Below, one piece after another: positions 3,292-64,000 of a DNA stretch of 64,000 bases (position 1 is its first letter; each line of letters starts with the position of its first letter). The stretch is from Octopus vulgaris. Its lineage: Eukaryota. The translations under genes and the position numbers were made by a program. The notes below the pieces were generated by a model. That model was not told where the DNA came from. It did not search any database and was given only the letters and a program-made list of their open reading frames with translations. The stretch covers positions 65,286,001-65,350,000 of the forward strand of contig OX597819.1 in the NCBI GenBank assembly GCA_951406725.2, given 5' to 3'.

Positions 3292-4444
3292 AGTTAACAA
3301 GAATTGTATTGGCCTTTATACATTTAGGCAGGTTTAAAGGGGTGTTGGTGGGGGACTTTTTGGGGGTAGGCATAGCGCAAAATATCATCCTTGGGGAGTG
3401 GTCAGGGAGTCAGTGTTAAATTAGATAGAAGAATAAATAAAAAAATAAAAAAAATAAAAAAATATATATAAAAAAAAATATATATATAGAAAAAATGGGG
3501 GAGTAGAGTGTTAGGTAAATAAGGAGATTCTCACTTATACCTATGCACATATGTATACATATATACACACACATACAAACATATATACATATACATACAC
3601 ACATACATACACACACATATATATACATATATATACACTTACACATACATATACATATCTACACATACACATATATGTATACATACACACACTCACATGC
3701 ATACACGTATACACACATGTATATATACACACACGACCACACATACATATACACACAGAAAAATATACATACACATACACACACATACTCACATACACGC
3801 ATACACACACATATCCACACACACACATGCACACACAGCACACTAGTCCCTATATACACATATATACACATACACACATATATACATACACACACATACA
3901 TATACATAGATATATATATATATATATATATACATATGTGTACCTATGCATACCTACACATACACACATATATATATATATATACACATACAAATACAGA
4001 CCCATTCCCTCCTCCTTAACAAAATCTCAGAACACTCCCCAAATTGTATGCATAAGAAGTATGCGAACTACAAGAACTATAGACCTACCCGGCAACCAGA
4101 TTGATGACACCCCACCCACAAAACCCCCCCAATCCCACCGTTCCCCTAGCACCCCCGATTACCTTTTCTCCTAAGACCTTTCACATATTGTATGTGCACG
4201 CTTGTATATGTGTATCGTATATATGTATAGAAATGTATGGGTATAGTAGGAATATACGCATGTATTATGTGTGTGTGTGTGTGTATGTATGTAAAAAAAA
4301 TATATATATATATATATATTTGTATGTGCGTGTGTGTATGTGTGTGTGTGTATATATGTATATATGTATGTATGTATAAATGTATATATGTGTGTATGCA
4401 TATGTATGTGTATATGTATGTGTGTATGTATGTGTATGTATGTA

Positions 4445-6380: not shown

Positions 6381-7026
6381 TATGTATGTATGTATCTGGG
6401 TGTGTGTATGTGTATAAATGTATGTATGTATGGATGTATGGATGTATGTATGTATGTATACGTATGTATGTGTATGTGTGTATATGTATGTATGTGTATG
6501 TGTATATATATGTATATGTGTGTATGTGTGTATATATGTGTATATATATATATATATGTGTATATATATATGTGAATATATATGTATATATATATATATA
6601 TACATGTATGTATTTGTATGTAGGTGTATATGTATGTGTGTGTATTTATATTTATTGGTGTATATGTATAGACTAGCCTTCTAAGAGTGTAGACATGAAT
6701 CTGTAGGTACGCGTACGTATGTGTATATACGTGAATGTATGTAGATGTATGTATGTATGAATATAACGCGTGCGTGCGTGTATGTGTATGAGTGTACGAA
6801 TGAGTGAGTGTACGTGCTAAAGAGTGTGCGTGAGTGAATGAGTGCTTGTTTTCCAGTAGACAGATATATGGACTGGCTGTCATAGCCAAGATGTTTGTGA
6901 CCAAGCGGCCAAAGATAATAAAAGTAATAAACGAAGATAATAAAATGAAAATTACGGAATGGGTCTGTATTTGTATGTGTATATATATATATATATGTGT
7001 GTATGTGTAGGTATGCATAGGTACAC

Positions 7027-7066
<40 letters not shown>

Positions 7067-7680
7067 ATGTATGTGTGTGTATGTATATATGTGTGTATGT
7101 GTATATATGTGTATATAGGGACTAGTGTGCTGTGTGTGCATGTGTGTGTGTGGATATGTGTGTGTATGCGTGTATGTGAGTATGTGTGTGTATGTGTATA
7201 TATATTTTTCTGTGTGTATATGTATGTGTGGTCGTGTGTGTATATATACATGTGTGTATACGTGTATGCATGTGAGTGTGTGTATGTATACATATATGTG
7301 TATGTGTAGATATGTATATGTATGTGTAAGTGTATATATATGTATATATATGTGTGTGTATGTATGTGTGTATGTATATGTATATATGTTTGTATGTGTA
7401 TGTATATATGTATACATATGTGCATAGGTATAAGTGAGAATCTCCTTATTTACCTAACACTCTACTCCCCCATTTTTTCTATATATATATCTTTTTATAT
7501 ATATTTTTTATTTTTTTTTTTTTTTATTTTTTATTTATTCTTCTATCTAATTTAACACTGACTCCCTGACCACTCCCCCAAGTATGATATTTTGCGCTAT
7601 GCCTACCCCCAAAAAGTCCCCCACCAACACCCCTTTAAACCTGCCTAAATGTATAAATGCCAATACAATTCTTGTTAACT

Positions 7681-8254: not shown

Positions 8255-8258
<4 letters not shown>

Positions 8259-8437
8259 TGATCTGAGAACATAATCTTTTGTGGAGAATGACGATTTGAC
8301 GTCTATATCTAGCATGTTGACTGTCCACTTTTCGTGTTCAGTCCTTAATTGGTATATATAAATATTTTAATCTTCGGATTCTTTTTTAATATGCTAGACC
8401 ACTGGTCTTAATTGATAAATATCAATTTCTACCCTTA

Positions 8438-8445
<8 letters not shown>
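8255..8445 (+). repeat. Fragment of the family at 26048-26724 (opposite orientation)
   Basis: gacgtctatatctagcatgttgac and aatcttcggatt are reverse complements of 26480-26660. Confidence 0.85.
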
Positions 8446-8469
<24 letters not shown>

Positions 8470-8471
<2 letters not shown>

Positions 8472-8675
8472 AGTACAGGACACCACAAATAAACGTAGAA
8501 CACAACGAGAAACGAAAACATGAAAACAAACTAGGAAACGGACTTTTTTTAACAACGAAAAAACAGAGTACAAGACAAACAATACAAGGAATATTCCCCT
8601 TCATCAGCTGTCCCTGGTTCGACTCAATGCGTGTTTCGAAGGTAAGGACAGAACACGATCCGGTCGAATCACATT
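8470..8675 (-). mobile_element. Short TA-embedded repeat with hammerhead core boxes in unusual order
   Basis: Minus strand has GAAAC (8637-8633) before CTGATGA (8607-8601), with three complementary segment pairs. Homologue at 6112. Confidence 0.55.
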
Positions 8676-22019: not shown

Positions 22020-22584
22020 GTTAACAATTAACACAGAAAAAATAGATCAATAGTTACCAGGGTAGCAAAAAATCACACAAGTAAAAGGGTTGTAGCTCCT
22101 TGTTTTTACAAGGTTCACATGAAATATTTCGTATAATATATATAAATAACAGGAGTTAAACGAAGGTGTTATTCAAATTCTTTTACTTCCGACACATGTT
22201 TCGAAGTTATCACTGGTGATATTCCAAAGGAATAAAATGGTGTAAAACAATGTAATCTTCTCTTCAGGGAAATGAAGAAATGAAACTCATATACATATTG
22301 TATTTATTAGACTTCCTTTCCTTTATCCATCCTCTTTTTATAGGCTACCTCTCATGCTATATCCCATAACGCTTTTTTTAAACAATCTGAATACGTTCAG
22401 AAAATCACTATACATATCCATCATTTTTGATTAAAATGTCTTATTGACGAGTTTCGTTTCTTCACTTCCCTGAAGAGAAGACTACATTGTTTTACCTCAT
22501 TTTATTCCTTTGGAATGATACCAGTGATATCTTCGAAACATGTGTCTAAAGTAAAAGGATTTGAATAAGAGCTGCATTTAACTC

Positions 22585-22588
<4 letters not shown>
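22020..22588. mobile_element. Foldback element with hammerhead-bearing inverted arms 22151-22289 and 22449-22588
   Basis: ~140-bp reverse-complement arms with a 160-bp spacer, flanked by (GA)n/(TA)n. Confidence 0.85.
22185..22273 (-). ncRNA. Type I hammerhead ribozyme with long helix II
   Basis: ATTTCC-CTGAAGA-GAAG...CTTC-GAAACATGTGTC^-GGAAGT. The plus-strand copy at 22464-22552 has a mismatched helix I. Confidence 0.8.
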
Positions 22589-22643
<55 letters not shown>

Positions 22644-25112: not shown

Positions 25113-26047
25113 CATGAACACGCACATACACACATATATGCATATATATACACGCACATGTATAGATATGGTGAGATATACACGTTCAATTTCATAATTT
25201 GATCGTTTTTTCGATGTCTCCAAAATAAACACATGCTCACATGTTCTCACTATATCTGCGTATGTTGTGTATGTATGTATGCATGTATGCGCATGCGTGT
25301 TTTTGTGTTCGTTTACGAATACCTGTATCTTTATATATTAAAATCTAACATAGTTAAACTCTAGCAAAACGTTGTTCAAAATTCTCTATCTTATTATCAG
25401 TTATATTTAACCACATCATCGACCAAGAAGTACTTCACCGCGAACAACGACAACAATATATGCACACAGTGGCTTCGATTTTTTATTTTTATTTTTATCT
25501 TCTTCCTCATTTTGTTAACAGCGTGATCGTAGCTCTGTTCCGTTTGTCTTTGTTCTCAATTGCCCAAAATATCAGTCGGCCAGAACAAACTTGCTATTCT
25601 AAATACGTACAATGGAATCGAATTATTCCTGTCTAAGAAGAAATAGATTCTATGGAAATCTTTCACTAGGTCAGCACCATATCAAGATCCGTGGTCATAT
25701 GGTTATTGTTATGAACCAAGCAAACTAGCAAATTTCAAACTCAACCGGATATACTGAAACAGCATACGCACTAATTGTCACATAAATATAGAAAAGATCA
25801 CATACATGTATATACATGCATGCATAGATACACACATACATACAGAAATGCACGCATAGTTATCTAAATACATACAAGCATAAATGGAATACGCGTGTTT
25901 ACGTATATTTCTATGGTTACATGTATCTGTATGTATGTTGAGATACCTCTGAGTCTTCGGGCGCATGTATATAATTCACCCAATAATTAGCCGCTTCTCC
26001 CTTCAGTTCACATGTATCTGAATATATATATATATGTACATATATAC

Positions 26048-26724
26048 AAAGGACTGACCACTAAAAGTGGGCGGTCAACATGCTAGATATAGACGTCAAA
26101 TCGCTATTTTCCACAAAAAATATGTTCTCAAATAAAAAAACCAGCACGAACCAAAGTCTTAAAAATAAGCAAGACAAATGAAAATATACGAAATAAAAAT
26201 GGTTACCTATGTACTGATCAGTTTCGATTGTTATTATCCACGCATGTAAATACCCGCAATCTCTTCAGCATAGTCGTCATATAGAAATACAATTTGCTGG
26301 ACTAGATACAAAAACGTTTGACCGAAGTCTCGCATGCATAGAGTCCAACCAATTATATTTATGTGTATCTTTCAAATGCCTTCACTTTGGCGCGCTGAGA
26401 TTGGAAATCTACCCTGCAGCTAATAAGCAGGAGCAGTCAATTTACCGGTTAGAGAACATTTATTATTATTTAAAATTTAATTAGGGTAGAAATTGATATT
26501 AATCAATTAAAACAAGTGGCCTAGCATATTAAAAAAATCCGAAGATTAAAATATTTTTACATACAAAATTTAAAGGACTGACCACTAAAAGTGGACGGTC
26601 AACATGCTAGATATAGACGTCAGATCGCTATTTTCCACAAAAAATATGTTCTCAAATAAAAACCAGCACGAACCAAAGTCTTAAAAATAAGCAAGACAAA
26701 TGAAAATATACGAAATAAAAATGG
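26048..26724 (-). mobile_element. Partial-tandem (1.3-mer) hammerhead element, retrozyme/Penelope pLTR-like; 524-bp period
   Basis: Near-identical direct repeats 26048-26202 and 26572-26724 flank a unique segment containing an HHR. TA tracts lie on both sides. Confidence 0.85.
26207..26273 (-). ncRNA. Type I hammerhead ribozyme
   Basis: CTATG-CTGAAGA-GATTG...CAATC-GAAACTGATCAGTA^-CATAG. All three helices pair, helix III is palindromic (ACTGATCAGT), GUA triplet. Confidence 0.9.
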
Positions 26725-26739
26725 GTATATATATATATA

Positions 26740-26741
<2 letters not shown>

Positions 26742-26801
<60 letters not shown>

Positions 26802-26819
26802 TATTATTATTACTATTAA

Positions 26820-26853
<34 letters not shown>

Positions 26854-26971
26854 ATTATTATTATTATTATCATTATTATTATCATTATTATTATCATTAT
26901 TATTATTATTATCATCATTATTATTATCATCATTATCATTATTATTATCATTATTATTATATATTATTATT
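26742..26971. repeat. (ATT)n/(ATC)n microsatellite; second tract 28105-28362
   Basis: Direct reading. The two tracts flank the RLE LINE. Confidence 0.95.
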
Positions 26972-28104
26972 CAGTAGTATATTTTTATAGCGTGCTTTCA
27001 CTTCACTACCGAGCACAGCTCTGTGTGCCCTGGGTATGTACTGTGGTTTATTGGGATGCTGTTATGGTTACTGTATCGAAAGTGTTTTGCATAGGATGTG
27101 TGCAGTGCCCAGTAGTGCAATTTTCTGTATGTTATATGTGTATGTAAGTCCTGGTGTTTTTGTTATGTATTTGTCTGAATATTTTTTTATCATACCTAAT
27201 GCGCCTACTATGATAGGAATTGTTTCTGTTTTTAGATTCCACATACGAGGTACCTCTATTTCCAGGTCTTTGTATTTTGATAGTTTCTCCATTTCTTTTA
27301 GAGCCACGTTGTCATCTGCTGCTATTGATACATCAATTAGAATGTTTTTTTTTCTTCATGATCTCTGACAACTATATCTGGCTTATTGGCCTTAATTTTT
27401 CTATGTGTGTTAATTGGCATATCCGAAAGAATGGTTGCTTTCTCGTTTTCCTTTACCTTTTCTGGCGTGTGCCAATACCATCTTTTTTCTGTTGTTATTC
27501 CATAGTGTTGGCATAGCTTCCACTGTATGAAGGTTTCAACTCTGTCGTGTCTGTGAGTGTATTCCTTCTTAGCCAGGACTGGAGAGCCAGAGATAAATGA
27601 TTTATTGTTTCTTGTCCATCTCCACATATTCTGCAGTTACTTCTTATGTTTCTTTTCATTACATGTTTTTGGTAATTTCTGGTGGGGAGGCTTTGGTTTT
27701 GTGCTTCATTTAAAAAAACCCTCTGTCTCTGTTTTGAGTCCTACGCTTCTCAACCATTGCTGGGATTTTTCTTTGTCTATTTTTTTTGCATTTAGTTTTG
27801 TCCAGTATTTGCTATGAAGGGGCTTTCTTGCCATCGTTTTATCATGGTCCCTTGCTGTTCTAGTTTTAGTTTGGATTTCATTTGTTTTATACCTTTTGCT
27901 GTTTCTTCTTCTTCTTCTTCTTCTTCTTCTTCTTCTTCTTCTTCTTCTTCTTCTTCTTCTTCTTCTTCTTCTTCTTCTTCTTCTTCTTCTTCATATTTGT
28001 TAGGTTGTATGATTTCTTGTTTGTATTTGTCAACTTCCTTAAATACTGAGAACATTCTTTTTATGTGGCTCGTGCTTTGCGGCTATTTGTATAAGTTTTC
28101 CTTG
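26972..28104 (-). mobile_element. 5'-truncated, frameshifted R4/Dong-type non-LTR retrotransposon (RLE endonuclease region plus 3'UTR)
   Basis: Translations ISGSPVLAKKEYTHRHDRV, KANKPDIVVRD, EKLSKYKDLEIE..RMW, IPIIVGALG and IQKIALLGTAHIL: the RHD and PD..D motifs of RLE LINEs. Confidence 0.9.
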
Positions 28105-34929: not shown

Positions 34930-35512
34930 GTCGACAAGCTGCCAAAAATGTCAGCACGCTGGGCGAAATCCGTAATCGTATTTCGCCTGCCGTTACGTTC
35001 TGAGTTCAAATTCCGCCGAGGTCGACTTTGCATTTAATCCTTTCAGGGTCGATAAATTAATTACCAGTTACGCACTGCGGTAAGTCGATGTAATCGACTT
35101 AATACGTTTGTTAGACCTTGTTTGTCTTCTCTGCGTTTAGCCTCTTGTGGGCAGTAAAGAAATAGGCATTACCTCTGCCGCTACGTTCTGAGTTCAAATT
35201 CCGCCGAGATTGGCTTTGCTTTTCATCCTTCTGGGGTCGATTAAATAAGTACCAGTTACGCACTGGGGTCGATGTAATCGACTTATCCGTTTGTCTGTTC
35301 TTCTTTCTCCTCTGTGTTTAGCCCCTTGTGGGTAGTAAAGAAATAGGTATTTCGTCTGCCGCTACGTTCTGAGTTCAAATTCCGCCGAGGACGACTTTGC
35401 CTTTCGTCTTTTCGGGCTCGATAAATTAAGTACCAGACCCGTACTGGGTCAATCTAATCTACTGGTCCCCCCACCCAAATTTCGCGCCTTGTGCCTAGAG
35501 TAGAAAAGAATT
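34930..35512 (+). mobile_element. SINE family B internal tandem trimer (~180-188-bp units)
   Basis: acgttctgagttcaaattccgccgag at ~34995, ~35183 and ~35364. Confidence 0.9.
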
Positions 35513-51183: not shown

Positions 51184-51217
<34 letters not shown>

Positions 51218-51466
51218 TCGTCCCTGTTGCGTTTACATTCGTTCCTTTTTCCAAGAAATCTAATGCTCACAGCTTAGTTTTTCCTTGGGGCTGGGCGATG
51301 GAGCAAATTTCAGAATTAATCAGCCGAAATTTGCTATGATGATCCGGTTTCTGACTGAAGATTAAAGGCTTCGAATGACCCGTCTGTTTTCTGTGTTCGT
51401 CCCTTTGTGTATTTCACGTTCTTGTTTCTTATATATAAATTTTATTCCTATATATATATATATATA

Positions 51467-53188: not shown

Positions 53189-53700
53189 TTGTGGTGGTCC
53201 TATAGAGAACGATATTACTGTTGCTTTTAGCGCCAGGAAGACACCCTCTCTCTCCAGCTGGCTAACGACACACTGTCTGAGTGCGATTAGTTTTTGCGAG
53301 ATGTCATAGCCTTACGTGATACACACAAACGCGGGCTTCTGGGTAAATTACTCGTCTTTGGAATGTGATAATCGCGAGCTATTTAGAGGACGATATTACT
53401 GTTGCTTTTAGCGCCAGGAAGACACCCTCTCTCTCCAGCTGGCTAACGACACACTGTCTGAGTGCGATTAGTTTTTGCGAGATGTCATAGCCTTACGTGA
53501 TACACACAAACGCGGGCTTCTGGGTAAATTACTCGTCTTTGGAATGTGATAATCGCGAGCCATTTATGAAAACTCCTTCCACTCGGAAAATACTATGTCT
53601 TGTAACATCATCCCCTATGGGACCGCCACATTTAGTTGGCAAACATATCATACGATACAGTACTGTAACTGTTTACCTGTCGGTTAGAGATTTAATATAG
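53189..53700. mobile_element. Inverted-terminus family copy with a 181-bp internal tandem duplication (53203-53383, 53384-53560)
   Basis: Units are almost identical and each holds a degenerate minus-strand HHR. The right end is the reverse complement of 28690-28780. Confidence 0.8.
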
Positions 53701-58553: not shown

Positions 58554-59618
58554 ACGCACTCACTCAAACAGACACACAGACACACACACTCACTCAAACA
58601 CACACACAAACAAATATACAAAGACACAGACATGCATTTATATATGCACGCAAACAGTACAATATATTTAATACAACCGAAAAAGAGACAACCGTGGTAT
58701 TCAAAAGAGTTAGGAGGCAGATATTACAGTCACACAGAGGAATTACATGCGAACGAATGGAGATGAAAAGAAGCGATAGAAATAACGAAGGAAAGAAAAC
58801 AGAAATAAAAAACAGAACGAAGCAAAAGAAGAAAATTGAAGGGTAGCGTGATTTGATAAGTCGTAAGAAATAGATAGCAGATAGTTTAAATGAAACAGGC
58901 GAGAGAAGTGTCATGAAATGGTAGAGAACGCCAAAAAAAATATATATATACAATAATAAAACGAAATCAAGAAGAAATGGTAAGGGATCCTTGAAATCTA
59001 TGGCGCTATTGTTTCGTAAACAATCATGAATTTAAGAAAATGGAGTTATGAAACATTGTATTCCAGTATTTTTTGATAGTGTTCTAGACTCGCTGCTATT
59101 ATTTCTAATAATTCTGTTGATTTTCTGTAATATTTTATGAAACATCATTGTTTTTTTGTTTTACAAGCGTTTTACTTTTTTAATACTAAAAAAATAAACT
59201 GACGTCTAAACTTGATGGTAACTACCTGCATGGTTTAGAGTTTGTGTTGAAAATCATACAAGGATAACGGTAGGAACAGCATACATAGACTAAAAGAAAA
59301 TTTTGAACAATTCTGAAGATTGTGTAAGGTTATCTATGCCAGTAACAATATCTGTGAATATCAACATTAACTTTATGTCTCTCTACATATGTGTGTGTGT
59401 GTGTGTACACATAATAGCGGGGTTTAGTTCACGTATAATCTAAGTGATTAGGTATTCCAGCTAAGTGCTGTTACGGATTACTCGGGTTCCAAGGTTACAG
59501 CCGAGACGGTAGTTATGGAGCCATTGCAGGTTTCCGAGATAGCGGTTATATCATTGTTGAAGAAGACAACAAACGTTTAGGCAAAGCAAACATCTCAAGT
59601 TATATACATTATTATTAT

Positions 59619-60058
59619 TGGAAAAAATTCAAAGTCTTACAGCTGTTTCTAGGATATGCTAGAGTATGGGATATTCTATCATCAGAGACAAATATGGAAA
59701 ATGCGATTAATGAAATGACGAAATAGAGATGAGGAGCAAAGGAATAAGGAGACGAAAACAGAGAAGAAAAAAGAGCATAAATATTCAGTTAAACTTTCCG
59801 ATCTTGTAGAAATAACTCGGATTACGCCGGGTTGAGGCTAAGGACTTATGAGCTTATTTCTACAAGAAAGCTGAACCCTGAACTTCTATGCTATCTTTTC
59901 TTCTCTTTCTTCATCTCCTTATTCCATTACACCTGTACTTTATGTCGTCACTTCATTAATCTATACCCTCCTCATTTTCCCTCTTTGAGTCCGATGTCGG
60001 AATATCCCATACTCTCGGATATCCCAGAAACAGGTGTGAGACTCTGAATATTTTTCCA
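59619..60058. mobile_element. Older foldback element (arms ~59619-59729 and ~59939-60058)
   Basis: agagtatgggatattc / gaatatcccatactct and attaatgaaatgacga / tcgtcacttcattaat. Confidence 0.8.
59634..59689 (-). ncRNA. Type I hammerhead ribozyme
   Basis: GTCT-CTGATGA-TAGaATAT...ATATcCTA-GAAACAGCTGTA^-AGAC with palindromic helix III ACAGCTGT. The plus-arm copy is degenerate (ccgatgt). Confidence 0.8.
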
Positions 60059-60420
60059 GTAATAAAAATGCAAATATTTTGAGATGTTTCCCTTGCCTTA
60101 ATATTTGTTGTCCTCTTTAACAAATATACATACATACATATATACATACATATATACATACATATACATATATACATATACACATGCACACACGCATTCA
60201 TACAAACGCACATATATATGGGAGACATTAAATGTGTAAGTCTCTAAGTGCATCCAGGAGTTATGACCTGCAAGCAACGCAGCGCCCTTAAAACGAAAAA
60301 ATGTAAGGAGTTAACGGCCGACATCTGATGTGTAGCTCTCTTGAAAGTTTCTTGCCGCAACACTACTGTATATATGGTAGAGAGAAAGAAGCACGCACAT
60401 GCAAATACAGATTTACACCA

Positions 60421-63685: not shown

Positions 63686-63746
<61 letters not shown>

Positions 63747-63804
63747 CTTGGCTGATGAGAAATCACGCGCCTAGGTGGCGCTAAATTTTGAAACCTGTAC
63801 CAGG
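63747..63804 (+). ncRNA. Type I minimal hammerhead ribozyme directly after (TA)n
   Basis: CTTGG-CTGATGA-GAAAT cac GCGCC taggt GGCGC taa ATTTT-GAAACCTGTA^-CCAGG. Confidence 0.75.
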
Positions 63805-64000
63805 TTGACCAGCATTTACTTGTTGTGACCCATTGGAGGTAAGACATTATTGTTGTTCACTGATATTTTTTCCTATCTTGTCTGTAATATATTTGTGACT
63901 ATTCGGTGGTACAGAAGTATTTTTAACTTCTATCATTAGCGATATAGGTACTCATGTAGTACCCTTGTGTATAAATGTACATATTTAATAACGTATGTAT

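Follow-up and report, generated by a model that had tools for sequence, protein, structure and literature searches.

Metazoan non-LTR retrozymes are described as non-coding, GC-poor units carrying one type I hammerhead and no LTR, present in high copy number, with genomic copies longer than one unit and a proposed mobilisation by PLEs (PMC7229834; bioRxiv 10.64898/2026.07.22.740005). The insertion analyzed here, found in a 64,000-nucleotide stretch of Octopus vulgaris DNA (the window; contig OX597819.1), is like them in these traits, its unit being non-coding, some hundred bases long and low in GC (33%). The axolotl retrozyme (PMC7229834) has a dimer-dependent ribozyme, as is predicted here. 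"Active" retrozymes feature two hammerhead-bearing tandem units, unlike the insert locus, where 1.3 units and one hammerhead are found, a difference that holds for the locus and not for the family. The 524-nt unit is also longer than the 170-400 nt RNAs of the metazoan retrozymes demonstrated by experiment (PMC7229834). Plant LTR retrozymes carry a type III hammerhead in both LTRs, a PBS and PPT, and a 4-bp target-site duplication, whereas the insert motif is type I, lies outside the repeats, and is accompanied by TA matches only.

PLE insertions are the second close parallel. As described in PMC4209133, PMC8557442, PMC11167929 and PMC3846280, these share with the insert and its family the partial tandem arrangement, the fixed 3' end downstream of the hammerhead, the variable 5' truncation, the inverted joints, the (TA)n targets without a readable target-site duplication, and the short palindromic helix III. 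Partial tandems, inverted 5' copies and a (TA)n bias are described for non-autonomous PLEs too (PMC8557442, PMC3846280), and PMC8557442 presents partial tandems of more than one unit as the ordinary form of PLE insertion. Non-autonomous PLE forms include Chlamydomonas MRC1. In work with a purified PLE protein, AT-rich DNA was nicked, and reverse transcription of unprocessed RNA began at an internal position downstream of the hammerhead (PMC11167929). Penelope elements are reported to be expanded in coleoid cephalopods (PMC8967140). In R2, a ribozyme cut sets the 5' junction and microhomology joins the ends (PMC3774820); the insert is comparable in that a cut may define the template's 5' end, a parallel resting on one copy, and R2 differs in having an HDV-like ribozyme, an autonomous element and an rDNA target.

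The insert is a hammerhead-bearing repeat of the retrozyme type, probably mobilised by a PLE. The labels "retrozyme" and "pLTR derivative" are compatible, animal retrozymes having been linked to pLTRs (bioRxiv 10.64898/2026.07.22.740005).

Layout of the insert and its hammerhead

The features of the insert, its flanks, and a second member of the family are as follows.

26048..26724, minus strand: whole insertion, 1.3 turns of the 524-nt unit (repeat alignment; no separable target-site duplication)
26572..26724, minus strand: upstream (5') repeat copy, beginning at +10 after the hammerhead cut position (repeat alignment)
26467..26571, minus strand: 105-nt continuation of the repeated part, whose end (about 26467-26472) is the common 3' end of the family (contig loose ends, 8257-8451 copy)
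26285..26356, minus strand: long hairpin, predicted, capped by GAC-UUCG-GUC and lying upstream of the hammerhead (-25.6 kcal/mol for 26283-26358)
26207..26273, minus strand: type I hammerhead motif whose helix III is short and palindromic, predicted cut 26212/26211 (descriptor, folding)
26048..26202, minus strand: downstream (3') repeat copy, ending at +164 after the cut, right behind a small predicted hairpin and at a TA-rich stretch
26725..26971, no strand: 5' flank, (TA)n and then a 230-nt (AAT)n, the latter the probable tail of the neighbouring non-LTR remnant
26020..26047, no strand: 3' flank, TA-rich microsatellite target
8257..8451, plus strand: second family member, 5'-truncated (start about +73), with the common 3' end, (TA)n on both sides, and no hammerhead

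The insert is a 677-base non-coding stretch on the minus strand. An earlier note on this DNA had described it as a 1.3-mer with a 524 period and a repeat of about 155 nt, and the repeat alignment confirms both the arrangement and the coordinates. The two copies of the direct repeat, 26048-26202 and 26572-26724, are offset by 524 at the left end and by 522 past a 2-nt indel in an A-run, and over the 153 bases that align they differ by 2 substitutions; at 524 nt, the unit exceeds the maximum period of TRF (500). Both flanks are TA-rich microsatellites, and the window as a whole is AT-rich (33% GC) and full of microsatellites. The search for a target-site duplication gave TA-repeat matches only, none separable from the flanks.

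Unlike an autonomous PLE, the insert has no RT-GIY-YIG ORF between pLTRs. Its longest stop-free frame measures 88 codons, Pfam gave no match for the three frames of at least 60 codons inside it, and frames and Pfam together revealed no coding remnant there. Neither RT nor GIY-YIG families matched any of the 150 frames scanned, out of 166 complex window frames of at least 60 codons. Five of the 150 had any match at E <=0.01, all under the curated cut-off, the only meaningful one being zf-RVT at 27498-27740. The unit is non-coding and hammerhead-bearing, and no Penelope ORF adjoins it, in line with the retrozyme-like nature first proposed for it.

The hammerhead is of type I and lies on the minus strand. 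The core CUGAAGA starts at 26268, GAAA is found at 26225-26222, and GUA has its A17 at 26212; helix I is made up of 5 bp (CUAUG/CAUAG), helix II of 5 bp (GAUUG/CAAUC) plus a 7-bp inner hairpin, and the cut is predicted at 26212/26211. The descriptor finds in the motif the CUGANGA, GAAA and UH core and helices I and II of type I hammerheads, and matched none of 2000 dinucleotide shuffles of the element and nothing in 30 shuffles of the window. Rfam gave no hammerhead at the gathering threshold in the window, nor up to E=10 in 25800-27000, where none of the 15 weak matches is to a ribozyme and microRNA models rank highest, on the TA microsatellite; the hammerhead call therefore stands on the descriptor and the shuffle control. 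That the hairpin at 26285-26356 might be another, degenerate hammerhead was ruled out, as it has no CUGANGA or GAAA core. Thirteen variants, among the 40 listed of 141, bear on this hairpin: six involve unpaired residues, four keep the pairing, three break it, and none is a two-sided change.

Helix III consists of 3 bp and a GAUC loop within the 10-nt palindrome ACUGAUCAGU at 26222-26213. In the folds predicted for the monomer and for the circular 524-nt unit alike, it has a pairing probability of 0.00, and the core CUGA pairs with UCAG instead (p 0.95-1.0). A stable helix III is therefore not formed in the predicted monomer, and the palindrome is predicted to pair between two molecules: when two motif copies are co-folded, the double hammerhead is the minimum-energy fold (-39.0 vs 2 x -14.3, or -28.6, kcal/mol). 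The earlier note had called this hammerhead fully paired; the minus-strand motif and its cut site stand, the full pairing does not. By these folding predictions, the hammerhead would be blocked as a monomer and active only as a double hammerhead. PLE and axolotl hammerheads are described as double hammerheads (PMC4209133, PMC7229834), and hammerheads blocked singly and active when paired are likewise reported in PMC6765202. The insert locus contains one hammerhead only, hence unit-length RNA cannot be released as a monomer from it, and without a partner in trans such a copy would lead no further.

The 5' end of the insert, 26724, maps to 26202, or +10 after the cut, as had been noticed earlier; by eye it is placed at +7, counting a TA common to the flank plus one mismatch. 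The chance of a start at +10 is 0.019-0.038, for one copy and a post-hoc observation. The 3' end lies at +164, and the repeat boundary at 26048 thus differs from the usual 3' end of the family, near 26467-26472. A splice-donor-like AG/GTAA was noted by eye shortly past two hammerhead cuts, at 26204-26211 and at 63838-63846. The 5' regions of PLEs are reported to contain introns.

The repeat family and the surroundings of the insert

The stretch is contained, wholly or partly, in 20 of the 24 listed sequencing runs. Four runs, all made up of contigs, were aligned to 25640-26571: X1 and X6, which are DNA runs, and X15 and X16, which are only guessed to be RNA. Family contigs numbered 6732 in X1 and 7948 in X6, most of them less than 95% alike, 472 in X15 and 1705 in X16. 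The repeat family is abundant and diverged. Being contigs, these data carry no information on RNA ends or circles, and the family contigs of X15 and X16 do not amount to expression of the insert locus. Outside these runs, a scan with a 20-mer of the repeat returned 0 loci each in metagenomes, prokaryote genomes and viral contigs, and a scan with the hammerhead pattern 0 loci in metagenomes.

The usual 3' end of the family is found at about 26467-26472 (+269), abutting (TA)n, and the 5' ends are variable. Among the rows listed, loose-ended contigs at 26467 with a TA-repeat consensus number 60 in X6 and 5 in X16, and the A at 26470 accounts for 71-86% of the aligned depth in all four runs. Three contigs at 26467 (X1 record 8, X15 record 14, X16 record 23) fall just short of the 31-letter rule, and a diverged one (X15 record 15, 26382-26500) crosses this position. 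The cut site is crossed in other copies as well, X16 record 17 spanning 26149-26245, and variant rows at 26202 sit 32-44 letters inside contig ends. Joints going back from the unique part to the repeat run from 26549 to 26080 in X1 and from 26551 to 26160 in X6, a further X6 joint, from 26551 to 26064, having letters in between. The 8257-8451 copy, which had been noticed earlier as a fragment at 8255-8445 spanning the repeat/unique junction, does cover it, and matches 26467-26661 at 86% identity. Since all junctions round the unit are present in other copies, the closed 524-nt unit is a trait of the family, which is thus multi-copy with a closed, circularly permuted unit, as in retrozymes. Two of the 12 listed joints switch strand. 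At all six letters checked, the two repeat copies of the insert agree with each other where 66-100% of the family depth differs; these common private letters and the near-identity of the repeat copies argue for one source lineage and one event.

The core of the family hammerhead seems to be kept, and its stems to be variable, judging from contig sequences. In X6, 38 loose ends at 26199 run on into a hammerhead-like sequence with a different helix III region (agreement only 0.54), and the loose ends at 26291 in X15 and X16 lead to a variant with a CUGAUGA core, an altered helix I and different neighbours. In X15 and X16, the runs guessed to be RNA, no contig over the hammerhead-proximal region is deeper than that of this variant, and the CUGAUGA subfamily is a candidate expressed source. 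No source array with two hammerheads turned up in these data, the insert locus itself having one.

No pile of (TA)n loose ends was found near 26202-26211 among the 24 of 636 loose-end rows listed. Aligned depth is mostly confined to the 3'-terminal ~180 bases. Summed depth, about 10^4-fold over the flank at the 3' part and dropping across the hammerhead, was rejected as a measure of copy number or of 5'-end clustering, as variant hammerheads fail the 80% filter. One X15 contig ending at 26211 and two starting at 26204 were set aside as RNA ends, contig ends being assembly breaks. Five of the 12 listed joints start at 26188-26209 and were left uncounted, as four have a short side of less than 27 letters and the joints resemble diverged single loci.

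The neighbour of the insert is the decayed, frameshifted 3' end of a non-LTR retrotransposon, at about 26972-28100 on the minus strand, which contains the zf-RVT match and is interrupted by a (GAA)n expansion. The remnant has 81 longer homologs, several with RT domains, and has the look of the R4/Dong type. Its (AAT)n end immediately precedes the 5' flank of the insert.

Elsewhere in the window, at 22267, 22470, 59685 and 63752, there are four type I hammerhead-like motifs that differ from this one in sequence, identified by the descriptor or as an inverted twin. Fragments of this kind are therefore common in the genome, and the insert is one of many. Two of the motifs (cores 22267 minus and 22470 plus) reside in a head-to-head inverted pair at 22132-22605, 88% alike and belonging to another hammerhead family, both copies ending within TA-rich DNA ~40 nt past the cut, in the manner of a PLE pLTR and its tail. 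The third, at 59685-59638 on the minus strand, has a palindromic helix III and is part of an imperfect palindrome (74%) at 59547-60128, a probable inverted PLE-type insertion; the fourth, at 63745-63805 on the plus strand, directly follows a long (TA)n tract. At 8472-8674 (minus) and ~51210-51430 (plus) lie short repeats with a (TA)n end, in which the order of the two halves of the hammerhead core is reversed or unusual, the former repeat adjoining the 8257-8451 family member tail to tail over a (TA)n tract. The window also hosts a 575-nt inverted repeat (3427-4001 and 6967-7541, 93% complementary, 2965 nt apart, largely microsatellite) and tandem arrays of period 181 at 34978-35436 (2.5 copies) and 53203-53566 (2.0 copies), possibly tandem SINE copies.

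Origin of the 1.3-unit copy

The reading that we favour, with moderate confidence, is that the insert is a copy of an abundant non-coding 524-nt hammerhead family, likely a non-autonomous PLE partner and, in a wide sense, a metazoan non-LTR retrozyme, and was probably made by target-primed reverse transcription of a linear RNA of more than one unit. A source array of at least two units, located elsewhere, would be transcribed in the hammerhead sense. The hammerheads would cut only as pairs, via the palindromic helix III predicted here, and cleavage would consequently be partial. After nicking (TA)n DNA, a Penelope-type RT/GIY-YIG protein would begin at an internal RNA position downstream of a hammerhead, in most cases near +269 and here at +164, unless the last 105 nt were lost later via TA microhomology. 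Copying would proceed through one uncut hammerhead and a complete unit, and break off 6-9 nt before the position of the upstream cut, at what may be either the 5' end of a self-cleaved RNA, to which about half the weight is given, or a random 5' truncation.

Copying of the PLE type is supported by the fixed 3' end on (TA)n, the variable 5' ends, the inverted joints and the copies running across the cut site; partial tandems with a fixed 3' end and a truncated 5' side, together with inverted joints and a microsatellite target, are what is found in non-autonomous PLEs. The start at +10, if real, would mark where an RNA cut by the upstream hammerhead has its 5' end, by analogy with R2. Counting against this last step, no RNA-seq reads beginning or ending at the hammerhead cut are reported for PAc in PMC11167929. 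Counting against the reading as a whole, the 150 of 166 window frames scanned gave no autonomous partner. The 3' side is less regular. Since the common 3' end of the family is at +269, the +164 end of the 26048-26724 copy needs an account of its own, and may reflect a start at another site or else the later loss of sequence via the TA-rich stretch. The two 3' ends are 105 nt apart, the shorter possibly a later deletion, and this distance exceeds the 30-40-nt tail of PLEs, with its two RT start sites, which speaks against the favoured model.

Rolling reverse transcription of a ligated 524-nt circle, according to which monomers would be released by double hammerheads, closed by a host ligase, and copied by a PLE RT for 1.3 turns, is unlikely. 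A circle as template has already been proposed for PLEs and retrozymes (PMC4209133, PMC7229834), and metazoan retrozymes are reported to make circles (PMC7229834). The unit is closed, with all junctions found in other copies, and its circular fold (-124.7 kcal/mol) exceeds all of 60 shuffles in stability (z -3.75, against z -2.44 for the plus strand), the core being predicted to be blocked in it, which would protect the circle. A circle copied twice would account just as well for the near-identity of the repeat copies. Yet a circle has no end at the cut, so that the start at +10 would have to be due to chance; unless it is, it indicates a linear cut RNA over a circle. The unit also exceeds the size of the animal retrozyme RNAs found by experiment (PMC7229834), yet is within the 51-972 bp of computed families, and only one of nine Xenopus retrozyme dimers cut in vitro (bioRxiv 10.64898/2026.07.22.740005 for both). 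The earlier note had seen in the insert the reverse transcript of a self-cleaved monomer or circle that ran for more than one turn. Reverse transcription of a more-than-unit RNA remains probable; the 524-nt circle is not supported so far, given the single hammerhead at the locus and the lack of an end at the cut in any circle. A circle is neither shown nor needed for the insert.

A linear monomer could not yield 1.3 turns without a template jump. In a process of this kind, which we hold to be very improbable, the RT would start at +164, run to the 5' end of a self-cleaved monomer, and jump to the 3' end of that monomer or of another to make a near-full copy; the 1.3 turns and the +10 start alike would then be explained by monomers alone. 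Against this, the cut junction is exact and agrees, on the helix I side, with the loose-end consensus of the family, whereas non-LTR RTs often insert extra bases when they jump from end to end; acceptance of a 2',3'-cyclic phosphate end would moreover be required. Formation at the DNA level, be it as an internally deleted PLE with 155-nt terminal repeats, a local tandem duplication, or a chance head-to-tail arrangement of truncated copies, is quite improbable. The upstream part, 26724-26467, stops exactly at the common 3' end of the family, PLE insertions often consist of truncated copies in partial tandem (PMC8557442), and many retrozymes are pLTR-derived (bioRxiv 10.64898/2026.07.22.740005), all of which would suit such a product; against it, diverged contigs of other copies cross 26467, making the short unit a family trait, and the insert has no coding remnant. 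The neighbouring non-LTR retrotransposon (26972-28100) shares the strand of the insert and immediately precedes it upstream, its (AAT)n tail abutting the 5' end, and could have mobilised the family or been inserted together with this copy. This is scarcely credible, as a (TA)n stretch separates the two, the 8257-8451 copy has (TA)n on both sides and no such neighbour, family 3' ends lack an (AAT)n tail, and a common preference for AT microsatellites explains the adjacency.

Possible template cleavage in Penelope-type copying

Whether PLE hammerheads cut the template in vivo, and whether circles or linear multimers are used, is an open question in PMC8557442, PMC11167929 and PMC7229834. The type of element being known, the locus alone is unsurprising, and its value is that of a test case. 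No description of such a family, or of a test based on 5' ends, was found in the literature covered, which consisted mostly of the main texts of open-access papers. Linear and circle models predict different distributions of 5' ends among copies longer than 269 nt, and the family is large enough for these to be counted. If, as is less likely than not, the start at +10 holds across copies, hammerhead cleavage would define Penelope-type templates in vivo, and a many-copy family would provide genomic evidence that hammerheads of the PLE type process the transposition template in vivo.
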